A DNA stretch of 49,763 bases from a virus. Made by a program: the position numbers and the translations under genes. The notes under the pieces were generated by a model that was given only the letters and a program-made list of their open reading frames with translations, had not been told where the DNA came from and did not search any database. The stretch lies in the IMG/VR virus record IMGVR_UViG_3300045988_172460, one strand, 5' to 3'. Positions 184-46,316 of the stretch are shown here, one piece after another (the stretch's first letter is position 1; each line of letters begins with the position of its first letter).

Positions 184-1321
184 TAGTAATCACCACATTT
201 TCTGTTTTACATTCAGCTGACTCATTTGGATTCAGATTAATGTCTTTGGCTTCGGTAGTTTCAGTAGATAATCCAATTTTTACATCAGCGACAACAACGC
301 CTGGTATTTGATAAATTAATGGATAAATATAAGAAAATCTGACTACTTCACCCATAGTCAGATTGTTAATGTAATTATTTACTATAACTTTTATTTCTTC
401 TTGTCCGTTTTTTTCAAATTTTGAATCTACTTGAATAGAAATATTCACAAAAATAGGAACAGATTTTGCATAATCAAATTTAACAATATGACTAAATCCT
501 CCTAAGTCTTTTACTTCAACTTCCTGATTACCAACAGTGTCAATCCCAGCGGCAACACTTTTAAAAATTGCCTGCCCAATATCGTCTTTCACTCCACCTA
601 AAATATGCACATGTACCGACTTGGGTGGATTACCATACGAATCAGTTTCCATTGTTTTATTTTCAACAACACTAGCGGTCCGTACTCCACTAACTTCTAG
701 CAAAGCAGTTAGAATTCCGTTTATTGGCGGCCCAGGATTCCCACGAACAGAAATACCAATTCGGTCGCGATAGGCTTTATCTGTTTCACGTTCTGCCCCA
801 CCCTCAGCCCTAGCAGGGTTATTAACAGATGATATTTCTTCAGTAGGTTCCACTTGTACTATAATAGTATTAGCTGGTACGTTTGAACTAGCATTCTCTT
901 CTAAAGAAATTGCGCGGCCTTTCCCAAATCCATTATCATCAATTTTGACTATATCAATCATCTGAAACATAACTTTATTTTCTGTTGAAAAACGTACGCC
1001 TTCATTAATGATGTAACCAGGTTTTCCTGAGAACTCCAGCTCAACCATTGCAACTGTAGCTGGATTTCTATAGATACCACTATTCGCACCTAAACGATCC
1101 AATGAAACCCCTGTAGCTTGACTTATGAAGCCACTATAATAAACTCTTTCAGTTAGTTCATGAGATATAGATAAAAACCATGCAACGATACGAATAATGA
1201 TACCCAGAACAGAATGTCCTGAAACATTAACATCCGAACCAAACAAGGCTTTTGCCTTTTCAGACATATCATAGAGTATTTCATCATATGTTTTTCTTTT
1301 AAATCCATTTTCATCAAGCAC
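167..1321 (-). CDS. Baseplate J-like protein (XkdT-like)
   Basis: 384 aa. GTG start with a GGAGGTGG SD. Sits after the XkdQ/R/S-like genes in PBSX order, and its size and profile are typical of the Baseplate_J family. Confidence 0.7.
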   Translation of the reverse strand: MLDENGFKRKTYDEILYDMSEKAKALFGSDVNVSGHSVLGIIIRIVAWFLSISHELTERVYYSGFISQATGVSLDRLGANSGIYRNPATVAMVELEFSGKPGYIINEGVRFSTENKVMFQMIDIVKIDDNGFGKGRAISLEENASSNVPANTIIVQVEPTEEISSVNNPARAEGGAERETDKAYRDRIGISVRGNPGPPINGILTALLEVSGVRTASVVENKTMETDSYGNPPKSVHVHILGGVKDDIGQAIFKSVAAGIDTVGNQEVEVKDLGGFSHIVKFDYAKSVPIFVNISIQVDSKFEKNGQEEIKVIVNNYINNLTMGEVVRFSYIYPLIYQIPGVVVADVKIGLSTETTEAKDINLNPNESAECKTENVVITSDQKA

Positions 1322-2823: not shown

Positions 2824-3186
2824 TTAATTATCTTCCCTTTCCAAACTTGGAACATTATAATTCGGAGGTAAATCATCTATATAAAGGAAAACCTGAATAC
2901 CAAAATTTTCAAAAGTTATTTCTTTTGAAGCTCCCGACTCATCCATCGGCACCAAATCTGCTGAAGGTAAACGAGTATCTACAATGTCTTGCCAAAGTCT
3001 TTCATCGATTACCATACGCTCACCAATAGCTATCGGTGTATGATCTATGTCATATAGATCTACAGTAAAAAATTTTTCTGTTTGATTATAGTCCACCTCA
3101 AAAATGTAATTTGTATTACCTAAAGGTATTTCGAATTTTTCAGGTAATGAATATTTATCAATAGGAATATATGCTCTTAAAGACAT
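2824..3186 (-). CDS. Hypothetical tail-module protein
   Basis: 120 aa with SD (GAGGTG), tightly packed between tail genes. No motif recognised. Confidence 0.6.
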   Translation of the reverse strand: MSLRAYIPIDKYSLPEKFEIPLGNTNYIFEVDYNQTEKFFTVDLYDIDHTPIAIGERMVIDERLWQDIVDTRLPSADLVPMDESGASKEITFENFGIQVFLYIDDLPPNYNVPSLEREDN

Positions 3187-3753: not shown

Positions 3754-6700
3754 TAAACAACCTCTCCTGTTCCTAGAATGTTAAGTAATTTTGCATACTC
3801 ATCTTCTAATGCTTGTCTTACAGCCTCTTTAATATCTCCAACAACAGATTTATCAGAATTATTCCCAACGTTGATAGTAATATTAGGACTAAAATTAACA
3901 GATGGAGATCCTTGATTAAAGAGCGCTTTAGTTTTTTCATGAGGATGTACAGTTCCAGCTGTATCTGCTTCGAACAATTCTGGTCCATTCTCTCCTACTA
4001 AAACTGTTTCACCTTTTGAAGGGCGGCCTCCCTTTGCATAAGCCCTTAATCTATGACCTGTTGGTCCCCATCCAGAATGTCCATATGGCAAATCTGTTCT
4101 CCAATTTGAATTATTGAAAAATGCCATTAGCTGATGGAATCCATTCAAAATGTTCTCATAACCACGAACTTTATACGCATTAAAAGTTTGAGGAATGTAC
4201 TGAAGCAATCCTCGAGCTGGGTTTCCACTAGCTGTATTTACATCCCAAACAGCAGAACTTTGAATAATACTTTGGTTACCACTAGACTCCCTCTGGATTT
4301 GAGCTAAAATGCCGTTTACTTCTGCATCACTTACTTGTTGATTCATTTGTTTTGCAGCTTTTCTAACTTGAGGACCCCATCCTGCAGCACCTACCGCCAC
4401 ACCACCAGCAGCTCCGCCATAAGTATCAGGATTTACGTGTTGGCCATTTGGTCCACCTTTTCTAAGTTCATAATGAACATGAGGACCAGTTGACCAACCA
4501 GAAGAGCCTACATCACCGACGATTTGACCTGCTTTAACTTTATCGCCCATCTTAGCTCTTATGCGGCTCATATGTCCATACATAGCCCATAGATTATCAG
4601 CAACTTTAATTCCTACGTGCTCACCTAATCCTATGGAAGAAGATTGAACCCAATCAACCAAACCAGGATATTGAGCTGGAATAGGCGTTCCAGTTGGAGC
4701 AGCATAATCAATACCCGTGTGAAAATCCCCATAAAGACCTGGTCGCTTACCATAATCAGAAGTACGAACAAATGGTGATCCAAAATGTGGAGCAAAAGCA
4801 CCTGAACCAAAAGCGCCACCATCTTCGGAATCAAAAAAGCCTTTGAAAGCCTCAAGTTTATTTTTTACCCATTCGGCACTGGTGTCTTTTAGTTTGTTCA
4901 TGACACCATGTCCCAAACCTTGGATATTTTTACCCTTTTTATAAGTGTTATGCTTATTAAATAAGCCAGTCACTTTTCCAATCGGGTCTGATAGCCAATC
5001 TTTTGCTGTTTCAGCTATATCTTTAGTTTTTTCTATAGCTTTCGTTCCTACTTCTTTTGCTTTATCTACTGCATTAGATCCAAAGTCTTTTAATTTATCA
5101 ACAGTATTTGCACCGAAATCCTTAGCACTATCAACAAAATCAGAAAGCCCATTTCCTTTACCTTTATGGAAACCTGGTAAAACTGTTCCTTGCCCCATAC
5201 CACCATTTAGTACAGCTTTTGTATCTGAATGGTTTAAGATCCGTTCACCCGATGTTATATTAGTAACTTCTGGACCATTTGATCCTAATAAACGCATTGA
5301 AGAAGTGCTCTTGTTATATGCTAATTCAACACCTTCTTCTCCAACCAAAGATGGACCACTATACGAAGCACCTCGAGAACCAGCAGCATGCATTTTGCCG
5401 CCTTTACCTTGTTTATATCCTGAGACATCCGCTTTGCTATCGGCTGTTGGAGTCCATGGTGGAATCTCATCTAATCCAAAAAACTTTAGAACCACATTAA
5501 TTCCGCTAGTAACAGCATTAATTTTTCGTGCTAAACCTGTTTTAAAATCTTCCCAAATCTTCAGAGCGCCATCTACAGTATTACTAATAGTTTTACTGAA
5601 ACCTTCTCCAAAACTTTTAGCGCCTTCAACTGTTCCGTCCCAAATCTCTTTAAATTTCTTTTTGGAATCCTTTTTAAAGACTTCCCATTTAGATAATGTT
5701 TGTCCAGTTTCCCAGTCCACTTGTTCAAGATGACCTTCCGCTTGCTTTTTAGCCTGTGTTACAACATCTTCATGTTGTTTTTCTGCTTCTTTGACTACAC
5801 CGTCTCTTTGTTCTTGGGCTTTTTTTAATGCATCATCATATTGTTGTTGAGTAATCGTACCATTGACATATCTTTCTTCATCTAAAATGCGCTTTGTTTC
5901 TTCATATTTTTCATTTGCAGATTTAATTGTACCTTCTTTTGCTTTATATGAAGCTGCTACAGCATCAGCAGCCTGTTGCGCGCTAATCTCACCTGATGCA
6001 TTTTTCAAATTACCCATAATGATTTTTTGCTCTTTAGCTGAATCTGATAATGCAACAACAGCTTGATTTTTCATATCTTCATGAATCGACTTATTAGCAG
6101 CAGCATGTTTTTCTTCAACAGCACGTACTGCAGCAGCTGAGGTTTTTTCTAACGACTCAATTTCTTTTTTATCGTTTTCTGATAGTTCTCGATTTTCTAA
6201 TCTTGCTTTTTCTTTGATTTCATTGATACGATTTGTGTAATACTCTGTAGCAGTAATAGATTCATCATATTCTTGTTTTTCTAATTTCTTGAAATCTTGA
6301 ACTTTTTCAGAGAACATATTTGTTCGTACTTTTGCTAATTCATCAGCAGCTGCCTTGGCTCCTTGTGCATCCTTTTCATTAAGAATTCCCATACCAGCTA
6401 ATTTATCAAGATTGCTATTAGATTTATCTTTCTTTTTATTCAGCTGTTTAGTAACTTGATTCTGCATGTCTTCTAAAGCTTTATATCGCTTAGTAACTTC
6501 TTCATTGGTAAGAACTCGTCCTTCAATTTTACCTGTAGTGTCTTGATCAACAAGAAGCTCATAGTTTTTCATAAAAGAGTTCATCCGCTTAGCAGTAGCT
6601 TTAGATACACCATTACCAGATTTAGTAGTATTATCAAACGGCTTTTCGAATAAATCCTTTGCTGAAGCTTTGATTTCTTTTATTCCTGATTTGCTTTTTT

Positions 6701-23378: not shown

Positions 23379-23569
23379 AATGTATCCCCTATTTAAATTT
23401 GTGTGGAACGCCTAGCCGAATCCACACTGAATAACAATACTAGGTTGCTTGCCTTTTCCTGTTTCCGCAGGCAGGCACTTTGAAAGGAAGGAGTGAAAAT
23501 CGTGTGTCACAGTAGTAGAAACATTTATTGACATATACCGATTTTTTATTTAAGTGGTTTCCCACTTAT

Positions 23570-23653
23570 TGACGTGACAGGAGTCGAACCTGCACAAGCA
23601 ATCACACACCATTGATTAAAAATCAACTGCTCTACCTATTGAGCTACACGTCT
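23570..23653 (-). tRNA. Atypical tRNA-like gene, anticodon UUU (Lys) by position, 17-nt variable region, A1-A72 mismatch
   Basis: Minus strand: AGACGTG-TA-GCTC-AATAGGTA-GAGC-A-GTTGA-TTTTTAA-TCAAT-GGTGTGTGATTGCTTGT-GCAGG-TTCGACT-CCTGT-CACGTCA-A. The D arm and T loop are canonical. Confidence 0.55.
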
Positions 23654-23683
23654 ACCTAATTTACTCGTAATTTGTAGAAAATT

Positions 23684-41996: not shown

Positions 41997-42278
41997 ATGA
42001 TGACACCATATGAATTGAGAGAAAGATTGAAAAGAGATGTTCCAGAAGTAACAATTTATCCAATATTAACAAACCCATATTATAGTGAAGAAGAATATCA
42101 AGATGTGCTGAAGGATCAATTAAAACCAAAAAAAGACATTGAAACTGATAATATGGTCACACTCCCCTTATTTTCATGGAAAGAAAAAGAATTAAAAATG
42201 GATAAGTTCTATGAAAAAGGCTGGTATAAACCTAAACTTTATACCCTTCCAAAATCTATGTTCAGGAGTGAAGATTAA
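41997..42278 (+). CDS. Hypothetical protein, translationally coupled to the integrase
   Basis: ATG at 41997 after GAAAGGA. 93 aa. TAATG overlap with the int start. Confidence 0.55.
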   Translation: MMTPYELRERLKRDVPEVTIYPILTNPYYSEEEYQDVLKDQLKPKKDIETDNMVTLPLFSWKEKELKMDKFYEKGWYKPKLYTLPKSMFRSED

Positions 42279-43504
42279 TGGCTTCTATAAAATCTTATAA
42301 ATTGAAAAATGGTCAAGAACGTTGGGAATACTTCGTTTCAAATGGACGTAGCAATGGTACTGGCAGGCAACAAAAAATACACAAGAGAGGTTTTAGAAGT
42401 CATAAGGAAGCTTTGAAAGCTGCAAAAATAATTGAAGGGCAAATTGCATCTGAAGAATTCGTTAAAGAAAATCCACAAAAAATGACTATTTCAAAATTTA
42501 TGAATATTTGGATAAACGAATACAAAAATAACGTTAAGGAAGGATCACGAATTGTCTATCGAGATGCTATCCGTATGTATATTGATCCCTATATAGGTAA
42601 TTATCAATTAAATAAATATAAACCTGCGGATCACCAAAAGTTTATTAATAGCTTGTTTACGAATAAAGAACTAGGAAAAAGTAAAAATGGGCTTAGTTAC
42701 AATACAGTAAAAATTGTAAATGCAGCTCTTTCCAATGCATTCAAAAAGGCGCAAAAATTAGGGTATATAAAAAGCAATCCTACCTACTTCGTTGAATTTC
42801 CTTTAGATAAGGTTAAGGAAAAAACAAATAAAGAAAAGAAACTAGAATTCTACACTTTAGAGCAGGAAAATCTATTTCTTGACACTGCTAGAAATTTTGA
42901 CGATTTTATGTGGTATGTATTTTTTTTAATCATTTTCGACTTAGGCTTGCGGAAAGGCGAAGTAATGGCCTTACGATGGTTTAACTTTGATTTTAGAGAT
43001 AATATTCTCACATTTGACAAGCAGCGTTTGTATAGAAAAGAGCAACCTGGTCAAGTAATTTTAGATGATGTTAAAACTGATGCTGGGAAGAGAAGTTTAA
43101 AAATGACAAACAGAGTGAGAAACTCCGTCTTAGAACTCTATAGTATTAATTATGATCTTACAAGTAATGTATTACCCATGACTAACTCAAACCAAGATTT
43201 TTTATTTATCAATCATAGAGGAAAAAACGTTGGCTTGCCTATTCGTCAACGATCCGTTGACACAGCTTGGCACCGTATCATTCAAAAAGCAAACTTACCA
43301 AAAATCAGAATTCATGACGGTCGCCATACTAATGCTGCTCGTTTACGACAAGCAGGAGTTCCACTTGAGGACATTAAAGACATGCTTGGTCATAAGAATG
43401 TTAAAACGACTGAGATATATGCACATGTCTCTCCTGAAGTGAAAGAACGAGCTGTAAATAAACTTGAATTATATCAAATGCAACACAAAAAATCAGGTAA
43501 CTAA
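42278..43504 (+). CDS. int: Tyrosine integrase
   Basis: 408 aa. R (LRKGEVMALRW), HxxR (IHDGRHTNAARL), H..Y (LGHKNVKTTEIYAHV). Followed by attP-like repeats. Confidence 0.9.
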   Translation: MASIKSYKLKNGQERWEYFVSNGRSNGTGRQQKIHKRGFRSHKEALKAAKIIEGQIASEEFVKENPQKMTISKFMNIWINEYKNNVKEGSRIVYRDAIRMYIDPYIGNYQLNKYKPADHQKFINSLFTNKELGKSKNGLSYNTVKIVNAALSNAFKKAQKLGYIKSNPTYFVEFPLDKVKEKTNKEKKLEFYTLEQENLFLDTARNFDDFMWYVFFLIIFDLGLRKGEVMALRWFNFDFRDNILTFDKQRLYRKEQPGQVILDDVKTDAGKRSLKMTNRVRNSVLELYSINYDLTSNVLPMTNSNQDFLFINHRGKNVGLPIRQRSVDTAWHRIIQKANLPKIRIHDGRHTNAARLRQAGVPLEDIKDMLGHKNVKTTEIYAHVSPEVKERAVNKLELYQMQHKKSGN

Positions 43505-43526: not shown

Positions 43527-43584
43527 AATGTATCACCAAATGTATCACCAAAAATATTTCAAAGCAAACATCTTTGTATCACCA
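43527..43584 (+). repeat. Arm-type repeat cluster 1: three copies of TGTATCACCA
   Basis: Copies at 43529..43538, 43541..43550 (a tandem 12-mer AATGTATCACCA) and 43575..43584, all in the same orientation. Confidence 0.75.
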
Positions 43585-43800
43585 CAAAGCTAAAAATTAA
43601 CTTAGAATACTATTCTATAGGCGTGCATTTAAGTCTTTTGCTAATTCTTCAAATCCTGGTTTACCTAATAAAGCGAACATGTTGCGTTTGTTAGTTAAAA
43701 TTTTTCCATAGATTTCATTCTTTCCGATTACTTATATATCAATGATTTATTAGTTATTGAAGTCTTTCACTATTTACATTTTTTTCATAGATATTTCAGA
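43585..43800. other. Probable attP core region
   Basis: Non-coding stretch bracketed by the TGTATCACCA clusters. Carries TTTCATAGAT(T/A)T repeats (43707, 43786, plus 43839 outside) and a 38-codon start-less open frame on the minus strand (43731..43615). Confidence 0.55.
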
Positions 43801-43822
43801 TGTATCACCAAATGTATCACCA
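43801..43822 (+). repeat. Arm-type repeat cluster 2: two copies of TGTATCACCA
   Basis: Copies at 43801..43810 and 43813..43822, same orientation and 12-nt register as cluster 1. Confidence 0.75.
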
Positions 43823-43861
43823 TTTGTTTTTATCATTTCATAGATTTACAAAATTTTTCTA

Positions 43862-43891
43862 TAGACAACACGAACATACATTCGGTATAAT
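43862..43891 (+). promoter_or_regulatory. Candidate promoter of the 82-aa ORF: TAGACA-18-TATAAT
   Basis: TAGACA at 43862..43867, TATAAT at 43886..43891. AGGAGGG SD at 43901, ATG at 43915. Confidence 0.5.
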
Positions 43892-43914
43892 TATATTACT
43901 AGGAGGGCGATAGT

Positions 43915-44163
43915 ATGAAAACTAATTATGTAGGAGTAGTTGATAAGATTAGAATGTTAAGTATGTACCCAAAAATGCTAGTTCGATTCTCATTAGTAAC
44001 ACAGGACGAAACTATAAACTGTATCGTCTCGAAAAACGAGCTGGCAAATACGCTACTAATGTTACCTGAACAATCTGAATTAGCGGTCTATGGTCATTTG
44101 AATAAACTAAATCAACTTGTAATTGAAAAAATGCTTGTAAGAAAATCTTTAGTAAATGCATAA
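43915..44163 (+). CDS. Orphan 82-aa protein (OB-fold-like beta pattern, unverified)
   Basis: Strong SD, its own promoter and its own terminator. VGVVDKIRML..MLVRFSLVTQDETINCIVS..ELAVYGHLNKLNQLVIEKM. Confidence 0.65.
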   Translation: MKTNYVGVVDKIRMLSMYPKMLVRFSLVTQDETINCIVSKNELANTLLMLPEQSELAVYGHLNKLNQLVIEKMLVRKSLVNA

Positions 44164-44170
44164 AAAATAA

Positions 44171-44196
44171 GCCTCACTCTTATCTAGGAGCGAGGC
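44171..44196. terminator. Bidirectional terminator between convergent units
   Basis: GCCTCaCTCt-tatcta-gGAGcGAGGC, followed by TTTCGTT on the plus strand and by TTATTTTTTA on the minus strand. Confidence 0.7.
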
Positions 44197-44204
44197 TTTC
44201 GTTA

Positions 44205-44278
44205 TGGACCATACAGGACTCGAACCTGTGACCTAACCGTTATGAGCGGTTGGCTCTAACCGACTGAGCTAATGGTCC
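44205..44278 (-). tRNA. tRNA with anticodon CAU (elongator Met or, more likely, Ile2/lysidine type)
   Basis: GGACCAT-TA-GCTC-AGTCGGTTA-GAGC-C-AACCG-CTCATAA-CGGTT-AGGTC-ACAGG-TTCGAGT-CCTGT-ATGGTCC-A. Perfect 74-nt cloverleaf with no encoded CCA. Has C4:G69 and C5:G68. Confidence 0.9.
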
Positions 44279-44302
44279 TGAAAACTTTACTTATTAAGTA
44301 AT

Positions 44303-44836
44303 CTATAAATTAAATGAAATAAGCTCTAAAGTTAGAATTTTTGCTCTTTTTGATTTAGTAAATGTTGGGCGACTACTCTTTGATACGTAGAAGGTGACTG
44401 GTGCATAGACACAATCGTTTACTTCACGTAATCCAAGTGTTAATATTTTATTTTTATGCGGATGGCTAAAAGCTATGTCTAGTTTCATAGATGAACCAAA
44501 CTTATCTGCTTCAGACACATATATCACTGAATCATTGTATCCCTCTAAAAATATTTCTAGAATAAATTCAAATAGCTCTACTCGATCTTTTATAGTACCA
44601 AAATTGCTGTGCCTTTGCAGATGTTTATATGTAATAACTTCATCATTCAATTTTTGACAAATTATTCTAGGTGAATCCTTATAAATTTTGTGTAAACCCA
44701 ATAAATGTGGGAGTTGTAAGATGTCAAATTTTACATAAAAACAGTCCAGTTTAACAAATGGCGTTGTTATAACAGCCATTTTGCCATCAAGATTTGATAA
44801 AAATAAGTTGTATGTTTTCTGCAAATCTTTAGGCAT
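44303..44836 (-). CDS. Orphan 177-aa protein (function unknown, possible small RNA-targeting enzyme)
   Basis: AGGAG 8 nt before the ATG. Preceded by a structured leader and followed 24 nt later by the tRNA(CAU). I cannot assign any catalytic motif. His-containing patches LPHLLGLHK and AFSHPHKNK. Confidence 0.7.
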   Translation of the reverse strand: MPKDLQKTYNLFLSNLDGKMAVITTPFVKLDCFYVKFDILQLPHLLGLHKIYKDSPRIICQKLNDEVITYKHLQRHSNFGTIKDRVELFEFILEIFLEGYNDSVIYVSEADKFGSSMKLDIAFSHPHKNKILTLGLREVNDCVYAPVTFYVSKSSRPTFTKSKRAKILTLELISFNL

Positions 44837-44865
44837 TTTTACAACTCCTCTATAATTTTAGACAT

Positions 44866-44950
44866 AAAAAAAAAGAGTGCAAATCATGGATACCGTCCCA
44901 TGCTGACCAACGCTAGGTTAACCCACCTGCTGGGGAACGTGGGTGCACTC
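44866..44950 (-). ncRNA. Structured 5' leader element: 76-nt four-way junction closed by a 7-bp helix plus U9
   Basis: Minus strand: GAGTGCA-CCCAC(12-nt loop)GTGGG-TTAACCTAGCGTTGGTCAG-CATGG(8-nt loop)CCATG-att-TGCACTC-UUUUUUUUU. Lies 30 nt upstream of the ORF177 start. Confidence 0.55.
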
Positions 44951-45026
44951 AATTCCCACTTTGCTTGTAAATAATGATCTAAAGCTAGACTAGAAAACGA
45001 GGTAATGATATCCTTTCCTCACACTT

Positions 45027-45055
45027 AATATAACATCTAAATGTATCGTATGCAA
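45027..45055 (-). promoter_or_regulatory. Candidate sigma70-type promoter of the leader-ORF177-tRNA operon: TTGCAT-17-TATATT
   Basis: -35 is the reverse complement of 45050..45055 and -10 the reverse complement of 45027..45032. Exact 17-nt spacer. Located downstream of the lysis-cassette terminator. Confidence 0.55.
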
Positions 45056-45184
45056 TAAAAATATCTCATGAAATTATTTAAAATACAGCATAAAAACAAG
45101 TTTAAGAAGATTTTTTCACTTACAAACACGTAAATGTGCCTGATCATCAGCTGGTTGCCATATTGTTAATTTTAATTAAATAAC

Positions 45185-45216
45185 AAAAAAAAGAGTCACC
45201 TTTGGGAAGGCGACTC
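45185..45216 (-). terminator. Rho-independent terminator of the lysis cassette
   Basis: Minus strand GAGTCGCC-ttcccaaa-GGTGACTC (8 bp, one G-U) followed by T8. Confidence 0.8.
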
Positions 45217-45230
45217 AAAGAAAGTTATTC

Positions 45231-46316
45231 TTAGTATCCAGTTCCCCAGGTATTCGATGGATTTCCATCATTTGGGCCAACTGGAATATAAATGCGTGTT
45301 CCGTTTACATCAGAGCCACCTAAGAAAACATAGCCATCTGCTACACGAACTGAATCATACTTAAAAGTAGAACCTTTCGGCCATACTCCGTATACAGGCG
45401 CTAACAAGCTTGGCGCACCGTTGCGAAGAACGATACCTTCACTAACACCGATAGTAAAAGTTTTTGCTGGCGTTGGTTTACTATTTTCCCATAGCTCAGC
45501 AATATCACCATCGTTTGCATAACCTAATAATTTACCACTATTTTCGATACGATACAAGTTTTTACGGCCATTTAGTTTTTGTGTAATGGTTCCAACCTGT
45601 GTCCATAAAGTATTAGCATTGATATGTTGTTCAATTGGCGCATCTGGATTTTTGTAGATTGTTGTAAAGCGAACGTGCTGCCCAACTTTGTATTTTGGTG
45701 CGTTCGGCTTGCCAGGGTTTACAATAACATCCGAGCCATCTTCTGGAAGTCCTGTTTGTAAATCTTGTGCAAACTGTGCCTTACTAATCCCCCAAGATGC
45801 CAAATAGCCATAAGGGTCTGTGTGATTTCCACCTAAATTGTTTGTCACCCACAAATGAGTTTTTATGCCGTAGCCTGTCGGATCGTCTAAATCAAACGTC
45901 ACATTAATTTGACGTGCTAAATCACGTAATAAGTTAACGTAAGCTGCATAGTCTTTCTTAAACATAGCTTTATCTGAAGTATTGGCTAATTCGACTTGTG
46001 CATAAGCATAAGGGTTTGCATCTCCTGCTCCCCAAGCTATACGACCGTTTTCCGCTACCTGAAGCACACGGCCCCCTCCACCTACAACATATTGCGTAAA
46101 CGCTTCTTGTCGTTGCCAGTTGTTAAGCATGTTATTGGCTTCGTTTTCTACACCAGCGTCCATATTTGCAGTATCATGCGCAATGATGTATCGATTAACT
46201 GTTGATGGCCAACCTGCGTTAATATTTCCGCGGGTTTCTACTTGGTAAGCATCTACATTGATTGCAGGCATAAAAAATAGAGCGACAAGCGCTCCAACTA
46301 AAATTTTCTTTTTCAT
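45231..46316 (-). CDS. Endolysin: N-acetylmuramoyl-L-alanine amidase (PGRP/Amidase_2 type) with N-terminal signal peptide and two SH3b-like repeats
   Basis: MKKKILVGALVALFFMPAINVDA-YQ signal peptide. IIAHDTAN...GGNHTDPYGY zinc-amidase motifs. C-terminal repeats KVGQHVRF...LYRI and GIVLRNG...VRVADGYVFLG. Confidence 0.8.
   Translation of the reverse strand: MKKKILVGALVALFFMPAINVDAYQVETRGNINAGWPSTVNRYIIAHDTANMDAGVENEANNMLNNWQRQEAFTQYVVGGGGRVLQVAENGRIAWGAGDANPYAYAQVELANTSDKAMFKKDYAAYVNLLRDLARQINVTFDLDDPTGYGIKTHLWVTNNLGGNHTDPYGYLASWGISKAQFAQDLQTGLPEDGSDVIVNPGKPNAPKYKVGQHVRFTTIYKNPDAPIEQHINANTLWTQVGTITQKLNGRKNLYRIENSGKLLGYANDGDIAELWENSKPTPAKTFTIGVSEGIVLRNGAPSLLAPVYGVWPKGSTFKYDSVRVADGYVFLGGSDVNGTRIYIPVGPNDGNPSNTWGTGY

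Follow-up and report, generated by a model that had tools for sequence, protein, structure and literature searches.

An accessory island in a viral DNA stretch of 49,763 nucleotides (nt) (IMG/VR record IMGVR_UViG_3300045988_172460; the window, below, means this whole stretch) carries on its minus strand a structured leader RNA followed by an open reading frame (ORF) of 177 amino acids, ORF177. Comparative analysis at the sequence level establishes the functional unit as a dedicated pair of RNA and predicted nuclease, held in a moron cassette at a defence hotspot. We favour the reading that the island constitutes a type III toxin-antitoxin (TA)-like moron in which the RNA would restrain the nuclease and the terminator between them would set the RNA:nuclease ratio, and give it a probability of roughly 0.45. 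An earlier note on this DNA had remarked on the type III-like layout of promoter, structured RNA, terminator and small protein; the resemblance is upheld, and each element named there was found where it had been placed. What it had missed, as the comparisons below indicate, is that the leader falls into a conserved class of RNAs with rli62 and Bacilli-1 among its relatives.

In the mechanism that we propose, a strong, constitutive-looking promoter would drive a ~155-nt leader made of two 5' hairpins and an 85-nt double pseudoknot. The closing helix and the U9 tract form a predicted intrinsic terminator, so that most transcripts should stop there as a discrete small RNA, and a minority of read-through transcripts would be translated into a PBECR4-family endoribonuclease. 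The pseudoknot domain would bind the nuclease and hold it inactive until a superinfecting phage disturbed host transcription or RNA stability; the freed nuclease would then cut RNA and abort the infection. Lytic Enterococcus phages that have the RNA domain copied into a noncoding RNA (ncRNA) of their own would be natural escape variants. We infer RNA-protein binding, toxicity and defence, as well as promoter and terminator activity. The sequence features that argue for this reading are the PBECR4 identity of the protein, the lack of a conserved protein partner, the linkage of RNA and gene, the covarying fold and the conserved order of elements, to which may be added the bare RNA cores of lytic-type phages, the coverage of contigs in sample ERZ772879, the detection of rli62 as a small RNA and the TIR and Abi genes in the same slot of sister phages; the pseudo-ToxI of phage PhiTE would be a precedent by analogy.

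ORF177 (44303..44836, minus strand, ATG at 44836) is preceded by the Shine-Dalgarno (SD) sequence AGAGGAG at 44851..44845, the two together spanning 44303..44851. It matches the Pfam family PBECR4 (PF18813) over residues 4-156 with 40 bits against a cutoff of 27 (E 6.9e-10), and PF18813 was present in every ORF177 homologue collected in the homologue search. On this sequence evidence ORF177 is a PBECR4-family predicted metal-independent endoribonuclease. The AGGAG-8 nt-ATG start and the 177-amino-acid frame had been read correctly in the earlier note, whose weak impression of a PBECR-type nuclease is borne out by the Pfam match; the same match overturns its description of the ORF as an orphan with no assignable motif. 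The PBECR family is defined by a His in an N-terminal helix together with a C-terminal Thr, and solo versions occur in phages (PMC5512222). An AlphaFold2 (AF2) model of ORF177 (predicted local distance difference test score, pLDDT, 92.2) places H44 in helix 39-45 and T148 in a C-terminal strand, and the protein thus has both defining residues. Both are invariant in an alignment of 18 homologues at 38-99% identity, as are the rest of P43-H44-L45-L46-G47-L48, R85, D111, D120, R137 and S162. The family is small, with 300 cluster representatives at E<=1e-3 among 1.84 billion, mostly stand-alone proteins of 165-210 amino acids, and ORF177 falls into PHROG 3446, annotated as 'unknown function'. Structural comparison with BFVD returned two unnamed proteins at E 1.5e-4 and weak matches to polyvalent proteins, and no solved sequence homologue was found in the PDB. 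As for a protein antitoxin, no conserved neighbouring ORF was found in any PBECR4 context examined.

Upstream of ORF177 lies a double-pseudoknot RNA core of ~85 nt (44875..44959, minus strand), delineated by comparative pair counts over 19 homologous leaders. Stem A (GUGGG/CCCAC, 44959-44955 with 44943-44939) and stem B (GAGUGCA/UGCACUC, 44950-44944 with 44881-44875) interleave as an H-type pseudoknot, in the order 5' arm of A, a linker of 2-5 nt, 5' arm of B, unspaced 3' arm of A, ~55 nt, and 3' arm of B. The long loop contains hairpin H1 (CCCC-NGCN-GG(N)GG, 44935-44922), which shows little variation; the conserved single strand UUAACCUAGCGUUG (44921-44908) follows, and comparison places hairpin H2 (CAUGG...CCAUG) at 44902-44885. 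In a second pseudoknot of 3 bp, GUC:GAC (44907-44905 with 44897-44895), the GUC pairs with the first three bases of the H2 loop. The single strand UUANCCNAGCGUU is invariant across the aligned cores.

An alignment of the cores by MAFFT misplaced stems A and B, and a hand alignment with N as gap was used instead. Among 16 hand-aligned leaders 99.7% of the cells were paired and 16 of the 24 pairs had changed on both sides; none of 500 shuffles reached the observed value, and slid controls gave 29-53%. With L129, Listeria phage A500 and Staphylococcus phage StauST398-5 added, the 19 leaders, drawn from Enterococcus, Tetragenococcus, Lacticaseibacillus, A500 and the Staphylococcus phage, gave 99.6% paired cells, changes on both sides at 19/24 pairs, again 0/500 shuffles and slid controls of 30-55%. 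Stem A varies by lineage through GUGAG/CUCAC, GUGGC/GCCAC, GUAGC/GCUAC, ACAAU/AUUGU and AUAGU/GCUAU, and the 3-bp pseudoknot occurs as GUC:GAC, GCC:GGC and GCU:AGC. A double-pseudoknot fold with two interleaved helix pairs is thus supported by covariation. Our own covariance model of the Enterococcus core, R1, scores 95.5 bits on the window at 44877..44943. Minimum free energy (MFE) folding of leader and core yields z-scores of -1.2 to -1.8, which are uninformative because the predicted structures ignore pseudoknots. No tandem repeats were found in 44100..45250 (Tandem Repeats Finder, minimum score 30), the RNA being single-copy, and Rfam returned no known ribozyme or ToxI-like family for the leader. 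Two other explanations of the conservation were discarded. A coding function, suggested by a 57-codon ORF across the leader of locus L024, is ruled out by compensatory changes in the helices and by linker and junction lengths that differ by 1-3 nt among relatives; mimicry of 16S ribosomal RNA (rRNA) by the core, suggested by the shared ACGUUCCC, found no support from the Rfam small subunit (SSU) model at E<=10.

The leader is preceded by a predicted sigma-70-type promoter with an extended -10 element (TTGCAT-17 nt-TG-n-TATATT, 45027..45055, minus strand), read from the sequence with TTGCAT at 45055..45050 and the upstream TG and TATATT within 45035..45027. A consensus scanner did not list it, since the -35 hexamer matches at only 3/6 positions. 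In all related loci a TTGNNN-17-TATAAT-like element is found equally far from the 5' hairpin, and for a prediction from sequence this positional conservation is better evidence than the consensus score. Both the promoter and the leader of ~155 nt, ending in a closed multi-helix structure and U9, had been described in the earlier note, and both are present and conserved in relatives. The 5'-terminal hairpin P0 (UGAGG...CCUCG, 44998..45021) has an SD-like 5' arm and an anti-SD-like 3' arm and is followed by the conserved pyrimidine tail UUUUCUAG; compensatory differences among relatives, judged by eye, include GAGG/CCUC, GAGAGAG/CUCCCUC and AGGUGAAAAUGA/UCAUUUUUCACCU. In L024 (~2825..2860), L071, L133 (~1240..1290) and the window (45005..44990), the 3' arm with its tail looks like the 16S rRNA 3' end, that is the anti-SD. 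The anti-SD-like sequence is UCACCUCCUUUCU in L024 and L071, which we take to equal the Firmicute 16S 3' end, and UCCUCCUUUCUAA in Streptococcus phage Javan155; a pyrimidine motif, CUUUC(N)UAG, also follows the first hairpin in most leaders. The second hairpin, P0b (44963..44985), is variable, all relatives having a hairpin here with unrelated sequences, and is followed on its 3' side by a conserved CAAAG (44963..44959). At the other end the U9 tract (44866..44874) abuts stem B, the closing helix, in a joint, intrinsic-terminator-like RNA end; stem B and U9 (44950..44866), a terminator predicted by consensus, end 14 nt upstream of the SD. Most clades keep such a terminator: a U run of 7-12 stands in the leaders of Enterococcus, Tetragenococcus, L041, L072 and L129 and is missing from those of L024, L071 and L073; A500, StauST398-5 and the clade borne by integrative and conjugative elements (ICEs), described below, have a separate canonical terminator.

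The RNA and the PBECR4 gene are linked over a wide range of divergence. In phage contigs whose ORF is 86-88% identical to ORF177, the 3' two-thirds of the leader are nearly unchanged and the 5' hairpins change compensatorily. The core lies upstream of homologues at 60-68% identity in E. durans, E. lemanii, E. pallens and Tetragenococcus, and of homologues at 38-46% identity in Lacticaseibacillus and metagenomic contigs; a leader is kept upstream of homologues down to 27-43% protein identity. When contigs were scanned with DNA patterns of the core, a PBECR4 ORF stood downstream in 22/22 viral contigs and in 8/10 metagenome contigs. These two specific scans supply the interpretable linkage counts; a third pattern, less strict, yielded many chance matches and a single new contig, L092, with a bare core, and a scan of genome contigs, made with a single peptide pattern, returned six loci. 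By these sequence comparisons the RNA core is upstream of a PBECR4 gene wherever it was found, bar three lytic-type contigs with a bare core.

Among deposited phages, a tblastn search with ORF177 found only distant homologues (27-29% identity), which sit in temperate phages of S. aureus, in Listeria phage A500 (gp26) and in Streptococcus prophages. In A500, StauST398-5 and Javan155 a noncoding gap of 370-640 nt lies upstream of the homologue gene, which directly follows the lysin gene in A500 and Javan155. Pfam confirmed PBECR4 downstream of the leader for StauST398-5, Javan155, L069 and the ICE clade, and A500 gp26 is tied to PBECR4 by tblastn only. The ICE-borne clade encodes PBECR4 proteins of 239-244 amino acids beside TraG/VirD4 and ArdC-N genes, and its leader of ~190 nt is a different structured RNA with covarying hairpins of its own, followed by a separate canonical terminator and an SD. 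This leader, at L055 2230..2503 and also in L094, L095 and L097, upstream of the PBECR4 gene, has no Rfam match. The order promoter-RNA-terminator-SD-ORF is kept in Enterococcus, Listeria A500, S. aureus StauST398-5 and the ICE clade, so far as sequence can tell an architecture that is conserved even where the RNA sequence differs. One Lacticaseibacillus contig has a DUF3800 gene directly 3' of the PBECR4 gene (L026 1357..2088); DUF3800 genes come with a set of orphan RNA motifs of their own.

The Rfam scan proposed in the earlier note came back empty for the leader of the window, with matches neither at the gathering thresholds nor at E<=10, only tRNAs being returned, and by gathering score the RNA is outside both rli62 (RF01486) and Bacilli-1 (RF02931). 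The leaders of its distant counterparts fall into these families: that of A500 gp26 is rli62 (142.5 bits against a gathering score of 83), that of the Javan155 homologue is Bacilli-1 (79.7 bits), and those of StauST398-5 and L069 match rli62 weakly (29 and 31 bits). Model R1 in turn picks out the A500 leader, in the expected position (16.1 bits, E 0.005), and the leaders of A500 and StauST398-5 accommodate all five helices. From the shared gene context, the R1 match and the shared helices we infer that the window RNA is an undetected divergent branch of an rli62-like superfamily, a distant relative of rli62 whose Streptococcus counterpart is Bacilli-1; the structure given by Rfam for rli62 differs from the pseudoknot model proposed here for the Enterococcus core. 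rli62 is an expressed small RNA of the A118-like prophage of L. monocytogenes, differentially regulated, patchily distributed and light-induced independently of SigB. The searchable literature gave no function for rli62 or Bacilli-1 and no stated link to PBECR4 genes. Just downstream of A500 gp26, Rfam also places rli34 (75.7 bits; L131 2319..2402, minus strand).

The three exceptions to the linkage, L058 and L059 (metagenome) and L092 (viral), contain the inner core alone, at 91-93 bits with R1 and with no PBECR4 ORF downstream. Their layout is that of lytic E. faecium siphophages, and the core is embedded in a transcribed-looking stretch of noncoding sequence between terS and terL, where L059 also has a DNA methyltransferase-like ORF. 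Such a stretch is shared by BUCT630, 9184, dArtagnan and IME-EFm1/5, among others; it begins with the promoter-like TGTTATACT, ends with a terminator and is built of repeated scaffold units and of hairpins that have covarying stems and the conserved loop GAGUUGGAAACCUUA, and at the sequence level it may be a modular phage ncRNA. It measures 600-830 nt (L059 1460..2280, L066 1050..1680, L067 903..1544, L068 968..1574), has no Rfam match, and its array loop can also be written as GAGUUGGAAACCUUARC. In L058, L059 and L092 an extra scaffold unit is present whose terminal hairpin is replaced by the core, oriented with phage transcription and closed by a new helix, GUCAC/GUGAC, rather than by stems A and B. 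The captured core differs from an E. durans-type leader by 0-1 nt, and CAAAG precedes the core in leaders and lytic-phage scaffold alike. Coverage in sample ERZ772879 was 85.9x for the bare-core phage contig and 7.2x for the PBECR4 prophage contig, which has a near-identical leader. No core was found in deposited E. faecium phages. One record, IMGVR_UViG_3300029751_000004 (77.5 kb), holds both a PBECR4 locus with leader (L048, 1-10469) and a bare-core array (L092, 21128-25057), and may have arisen as a chimera in assembly, by joining at the 67-nt core that both share.

Type III TA systems are recognised by a constitutive promoter, a pseudoknot ncRNA, a terminator and an endoribonuclease gene (PMC3401426). 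With ToxIN, CptIN and TenpIN the island shares, as predicted activities, the order of promoter, pseudoknot RNA, terminator and RNase gene, as well as carriage on mobile elements and phage-borne copies of the RNA, the latter recalling the escape of phage PhiTE from ToxIN by a pseudo-ToxI RNA or a hijacked ToxI (PMC3475682). It differs from them in having one double pseudoknot of ~85 nt, of an architecture unlike that of ToxI, where they have 1.9-5.6 tandem repeats of 31-62 nt, in a PBECR4/BECR rather than a ToxN-like enzyme, and in variants that lack the terminator. The PBECR polyvalent proteins of Iyer et al. (2017, PMC5512222) resemble ORF177 in the Pfam PBECR4 domain, the His/Thr pair and the existence of solo phage versions; that account treats injected polyvalent effectors and solo phage versions and describes no upstream RNA partner, whereas ORF177 stands alone as a moron and has a promoter of its own and a structured RNA dedicated to it. 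Like phage morons and the defence hotspots at prophage ends, the island has its own promoter and terminators and lies between the lysis genes and attP; its cargo, unlike theirs, is an RNA-nuclease pair outside PADLOC. The literature found contained no experimentally tested function, target or regulator for any PBECR nuclease, a predicted group of enzymes that occurs in phages and mobile elements.

Several observations weigh against the TA-like reading. The leader has no tandem repeats and so misses the defining feature of canonical type III systems, and the toxin is not of the ToxN, CptN or TenpN kind, Pfam giving PBECR4 only. A Foldseek search of the PDB gave no significant match for ORF177, its weak top matches being BrnT, HigB, ParE, RelE and RegB (E 0.36-1.8 for BrnT, HigB, ParE and RegB), so that the similarity of ORF177 to solved BECR RNases (RelE, colicin D/E5, RegB) is not significant; PADLOC, its Abi and TA models included, has neither a match nor a model for ORF177. 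The toxicity of the nuclease is a prediction from sequence, the covariation alignment was fitted to the structure by hand, and the 5'-terminal hairpin suggests a stable rather than a labile RNA. The unpaired nucleotides of the RNA are better conserved than the protein, with near-identical cores at 43% protein identity, a pattern that fits a ribozyme or a ligand-binding aptamer better than an antitoxin that co-evolves with its toxin. In L024, L071 and L073 no terminator separates RNA and ORF, and the RNA there would simply be a 5' untranslated region (UTR); rli62, finally, is typed by Rfam as cis-regulatory.

The last three points also speak for the main rival, a leader that acts purely in cis, as a riboswitch-like aptamer or as a protein- or tRNA-sensing attenuator that switches the nuclease gene and has no antitoxin role in trans, its folded state completing the terminator (stem B and U9) in response to a cellular signal. 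A compact, single-copy pseudoknotted domain that in every case directly precedes the ORF on its own strand, and to whose fold the terminator helix belongs, would suit such a regulator. Yet no conserved alternative, anti-terminator pairing was identified among the leaders, the terminators of A500, StauST398-5 and the ICE clade are separate hairpins with no evident overlap with the domain, the gene context points to no ligand, and lytic phages that have the inner core with neither platform nor gene would gain nothing obvious from it; we regard regulation in cis as possible but rather unlikely. Instead of inhibiting the nuclease, the RNA could also serve it as cofactor, sensor or processing substrate, either as a scaffold that activates or targets PBECR4 or as an autoregulatory cleavage site comparable to the SD-like sequences cut by T4 RegB, with the phage copies as decoys that soak up the enzyme. 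The RNA-gene linkage and the phage-borne copies fit this as well as they fit an antitoxin, the BECR-fold RNase RegB has early phage mRNAs as its targets (PMC5512222), the 5' hairpin has SD-like and anti-SD-like sequences, and leaders and phage scaffold share the conserved CAAAG before the core. Against it, the leader gives no match to the SSU rRNA model of Rfam, and a lysogen would have difficulty carrying a nuclease that is constitutively active and has no inhibitor; we consider a cofactor or substrate role improbable.

Least credible is a tRNA-centred conflict module, which the earlier note had suggested and in which the nuclease would attack a host tRNA and the neighbouring tRNA(CAU) would serve as a resistant replacement, or the leader would sense a tRNA. 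The idea draws on the BECR toxins colicins D and E5, which cut tRNAs (PMC5512222), and on position: in E. faecalis-type loci 24-27 nt separate the ORF from the tRNA behind it and no terminator intervenes, and in E. durans-type loci a tRNA(CAU) lies within ~700 nt. In L030, L047 and L050, however, it is upstream and divergent; many loci have PBECR4 and leader with no tRNA(CAU) (L018-23, L024-27, L051-53, L060, L064 and L069-73; A500, StauST398-5 and Javan155 were outside the tRNA scan); phiFL phages, which lack ORF177, keep a 96% identical tRNA next to the lysin gene; and EFC-1 and IME197 have other cargo on either side of it. Because the tRNA occurs without the module and the module without the tRNA, their linkage appears to be positional, both occupying the cargo slot beside attP; of the leader-ORF-tRNA linkage sought in relatives, the leader-ORF part stands and the tRNA part does not.

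Returning to the TA-like reading, we tentatively extend it to a new class of RNA-protein TA or abortive-infection systems, in which a PBECR4 RNase would be held by a single-copy double pseudoknot of the rli62/Bacilli-1 superfamily, spread as a post-lysin moron by the temperate phages and ICEs found in Enterococcus, Listeria, Staphylococcus, Streptococcus and Lactobacillaceae, and countered by lytic phages through copying of the core; taken as a whole this is a more doubtful claim. A dedicated and deeply conserved RNA partner makes the question of PBECR function directly testable. If the proposal is true, it would give a role to rli62 and Bacilli-1, both of them orphan families, of which one is expressed as a small RNA in a major pathogen. 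Should the RNA prove to be an inhibitor, type III TA would extend beyond ToxN-like toxins and repeat arrays, which matters because current searches require tandem repeats. The core copies in phages would then be a rare case of natural RNA mimicry as counter-defence in Enterococcus, with a bearing on phage therapy against E. faecium and E. faecalis.

As to the surroundings of the island, most large ORFs of the window are on the minus strand, those for structural proteins at 0-23 kb and 47-49.7 kb and those for replication at 25-39 kb; on the plus strand, a lysogeny block ends with a tyrosine integrase gene (42278..43504). By DNA similarity the window belongs with temperate Enterococcus faecalis phages such as phiFL, phiEf11, EFC-1 and IME197, and this similarity and the gene layout mark the window as a circularly permuted phage genome. 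The island sits between integrase/attP and the lysis cassette, whose terminator (45193..45216, minus strand, from a hairpin scan) is predicted to insulate it from late transcription. After the integrase gene the direct repeat ATGTATCACCAAATGTATCACCA occurs twice (43527..43553 and 43800..43826), ~250 bp apart, and the two copies look like candidate arm-type integrase binding sites of attP. In EFC-1 the integrase-lysin slot contains a TIR-domain gene placed between ORF82 and the tRNA (L001 2041..2883), and in IME197 an Abi gene stands on one side of the tRNA and a DUF4231 and TIR pair on the other (L002 3399..4361, 4683..5721). Judged by this gene content, the slot is a cargo and defence hotspot in related phages, with tRNA(CAU) as a fixed landmark between cargo insertion points, and the suggestion that moron, defence or toxin cargo sits at this prophage end is supported.

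The tRNA(CAU) itself (44205..44278, minus strand) begins 24 nt after the ORF177 stop, as had been noted, and is called by both ARAGORN and Rfam (69.9 bits against 29). It is not an initiator, since positions 1/72 pair and the anticodon stem lacks a run of three G-C pairs, and would by sequence be of the elongator Met or Ile2 type; C4-G69 and C5-G68 presumably resemble tRNA-Ile2. It looks functional, changes in the anticodon stem between phages being compensatory. A terminator hairpin, found as foreseen at 44169..44198 (11-bp stem, T run on the minus strand), separates the tRNA/ORF177 unit from the convergent ORF82 (43862..44163, plus strand), which consists of a promoter-like site (43862..43891, 11/12 match), an SD and an ORF of 82 amino acids (43915..44163). 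Its AF2 model (pLDDT 86.8) runs E2-16, E22-28, E33-38, H41-49, E55-62 and E68-76 (beta1-3, alpha, beta4-5). All 33 Foldseek matches in the PDB at E<=1e-3 are OB domains, among them the OB folds of SSB, LysRS-N, PolC and Stn1, with TM scores of 0.6-0.8 for SSB, LysRS and PolC, and the predicted structure thus agrees with the OB-fold-like pattern guessed from its sequence. ORF82 has homologues in Enterococcus only, and these greatly outnumber PBECR4, with 611 contigs for a single cluster; EFC-1, IME197 and phiFC1 have ORF82 but not ORF177. On these distributions tRNA(CAU) and ORF82 are backbone neighbours outside the nuclease module. A second tRNA, tRNA-Lys(UUU), lies in an intergenic gap of the window at 23568..23654 (minus strand; Rfam 58.9 bits, 85-87 nt) and is odd in that it has an A1/A72 mismatch and an extra arm of ~14-17 nt (GGUGUGUGAUUGCUUGU). 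Anticodon nucleases target Lys(UUU) tRNAs, and this atypical phage copy is possibly of interest for that reason.

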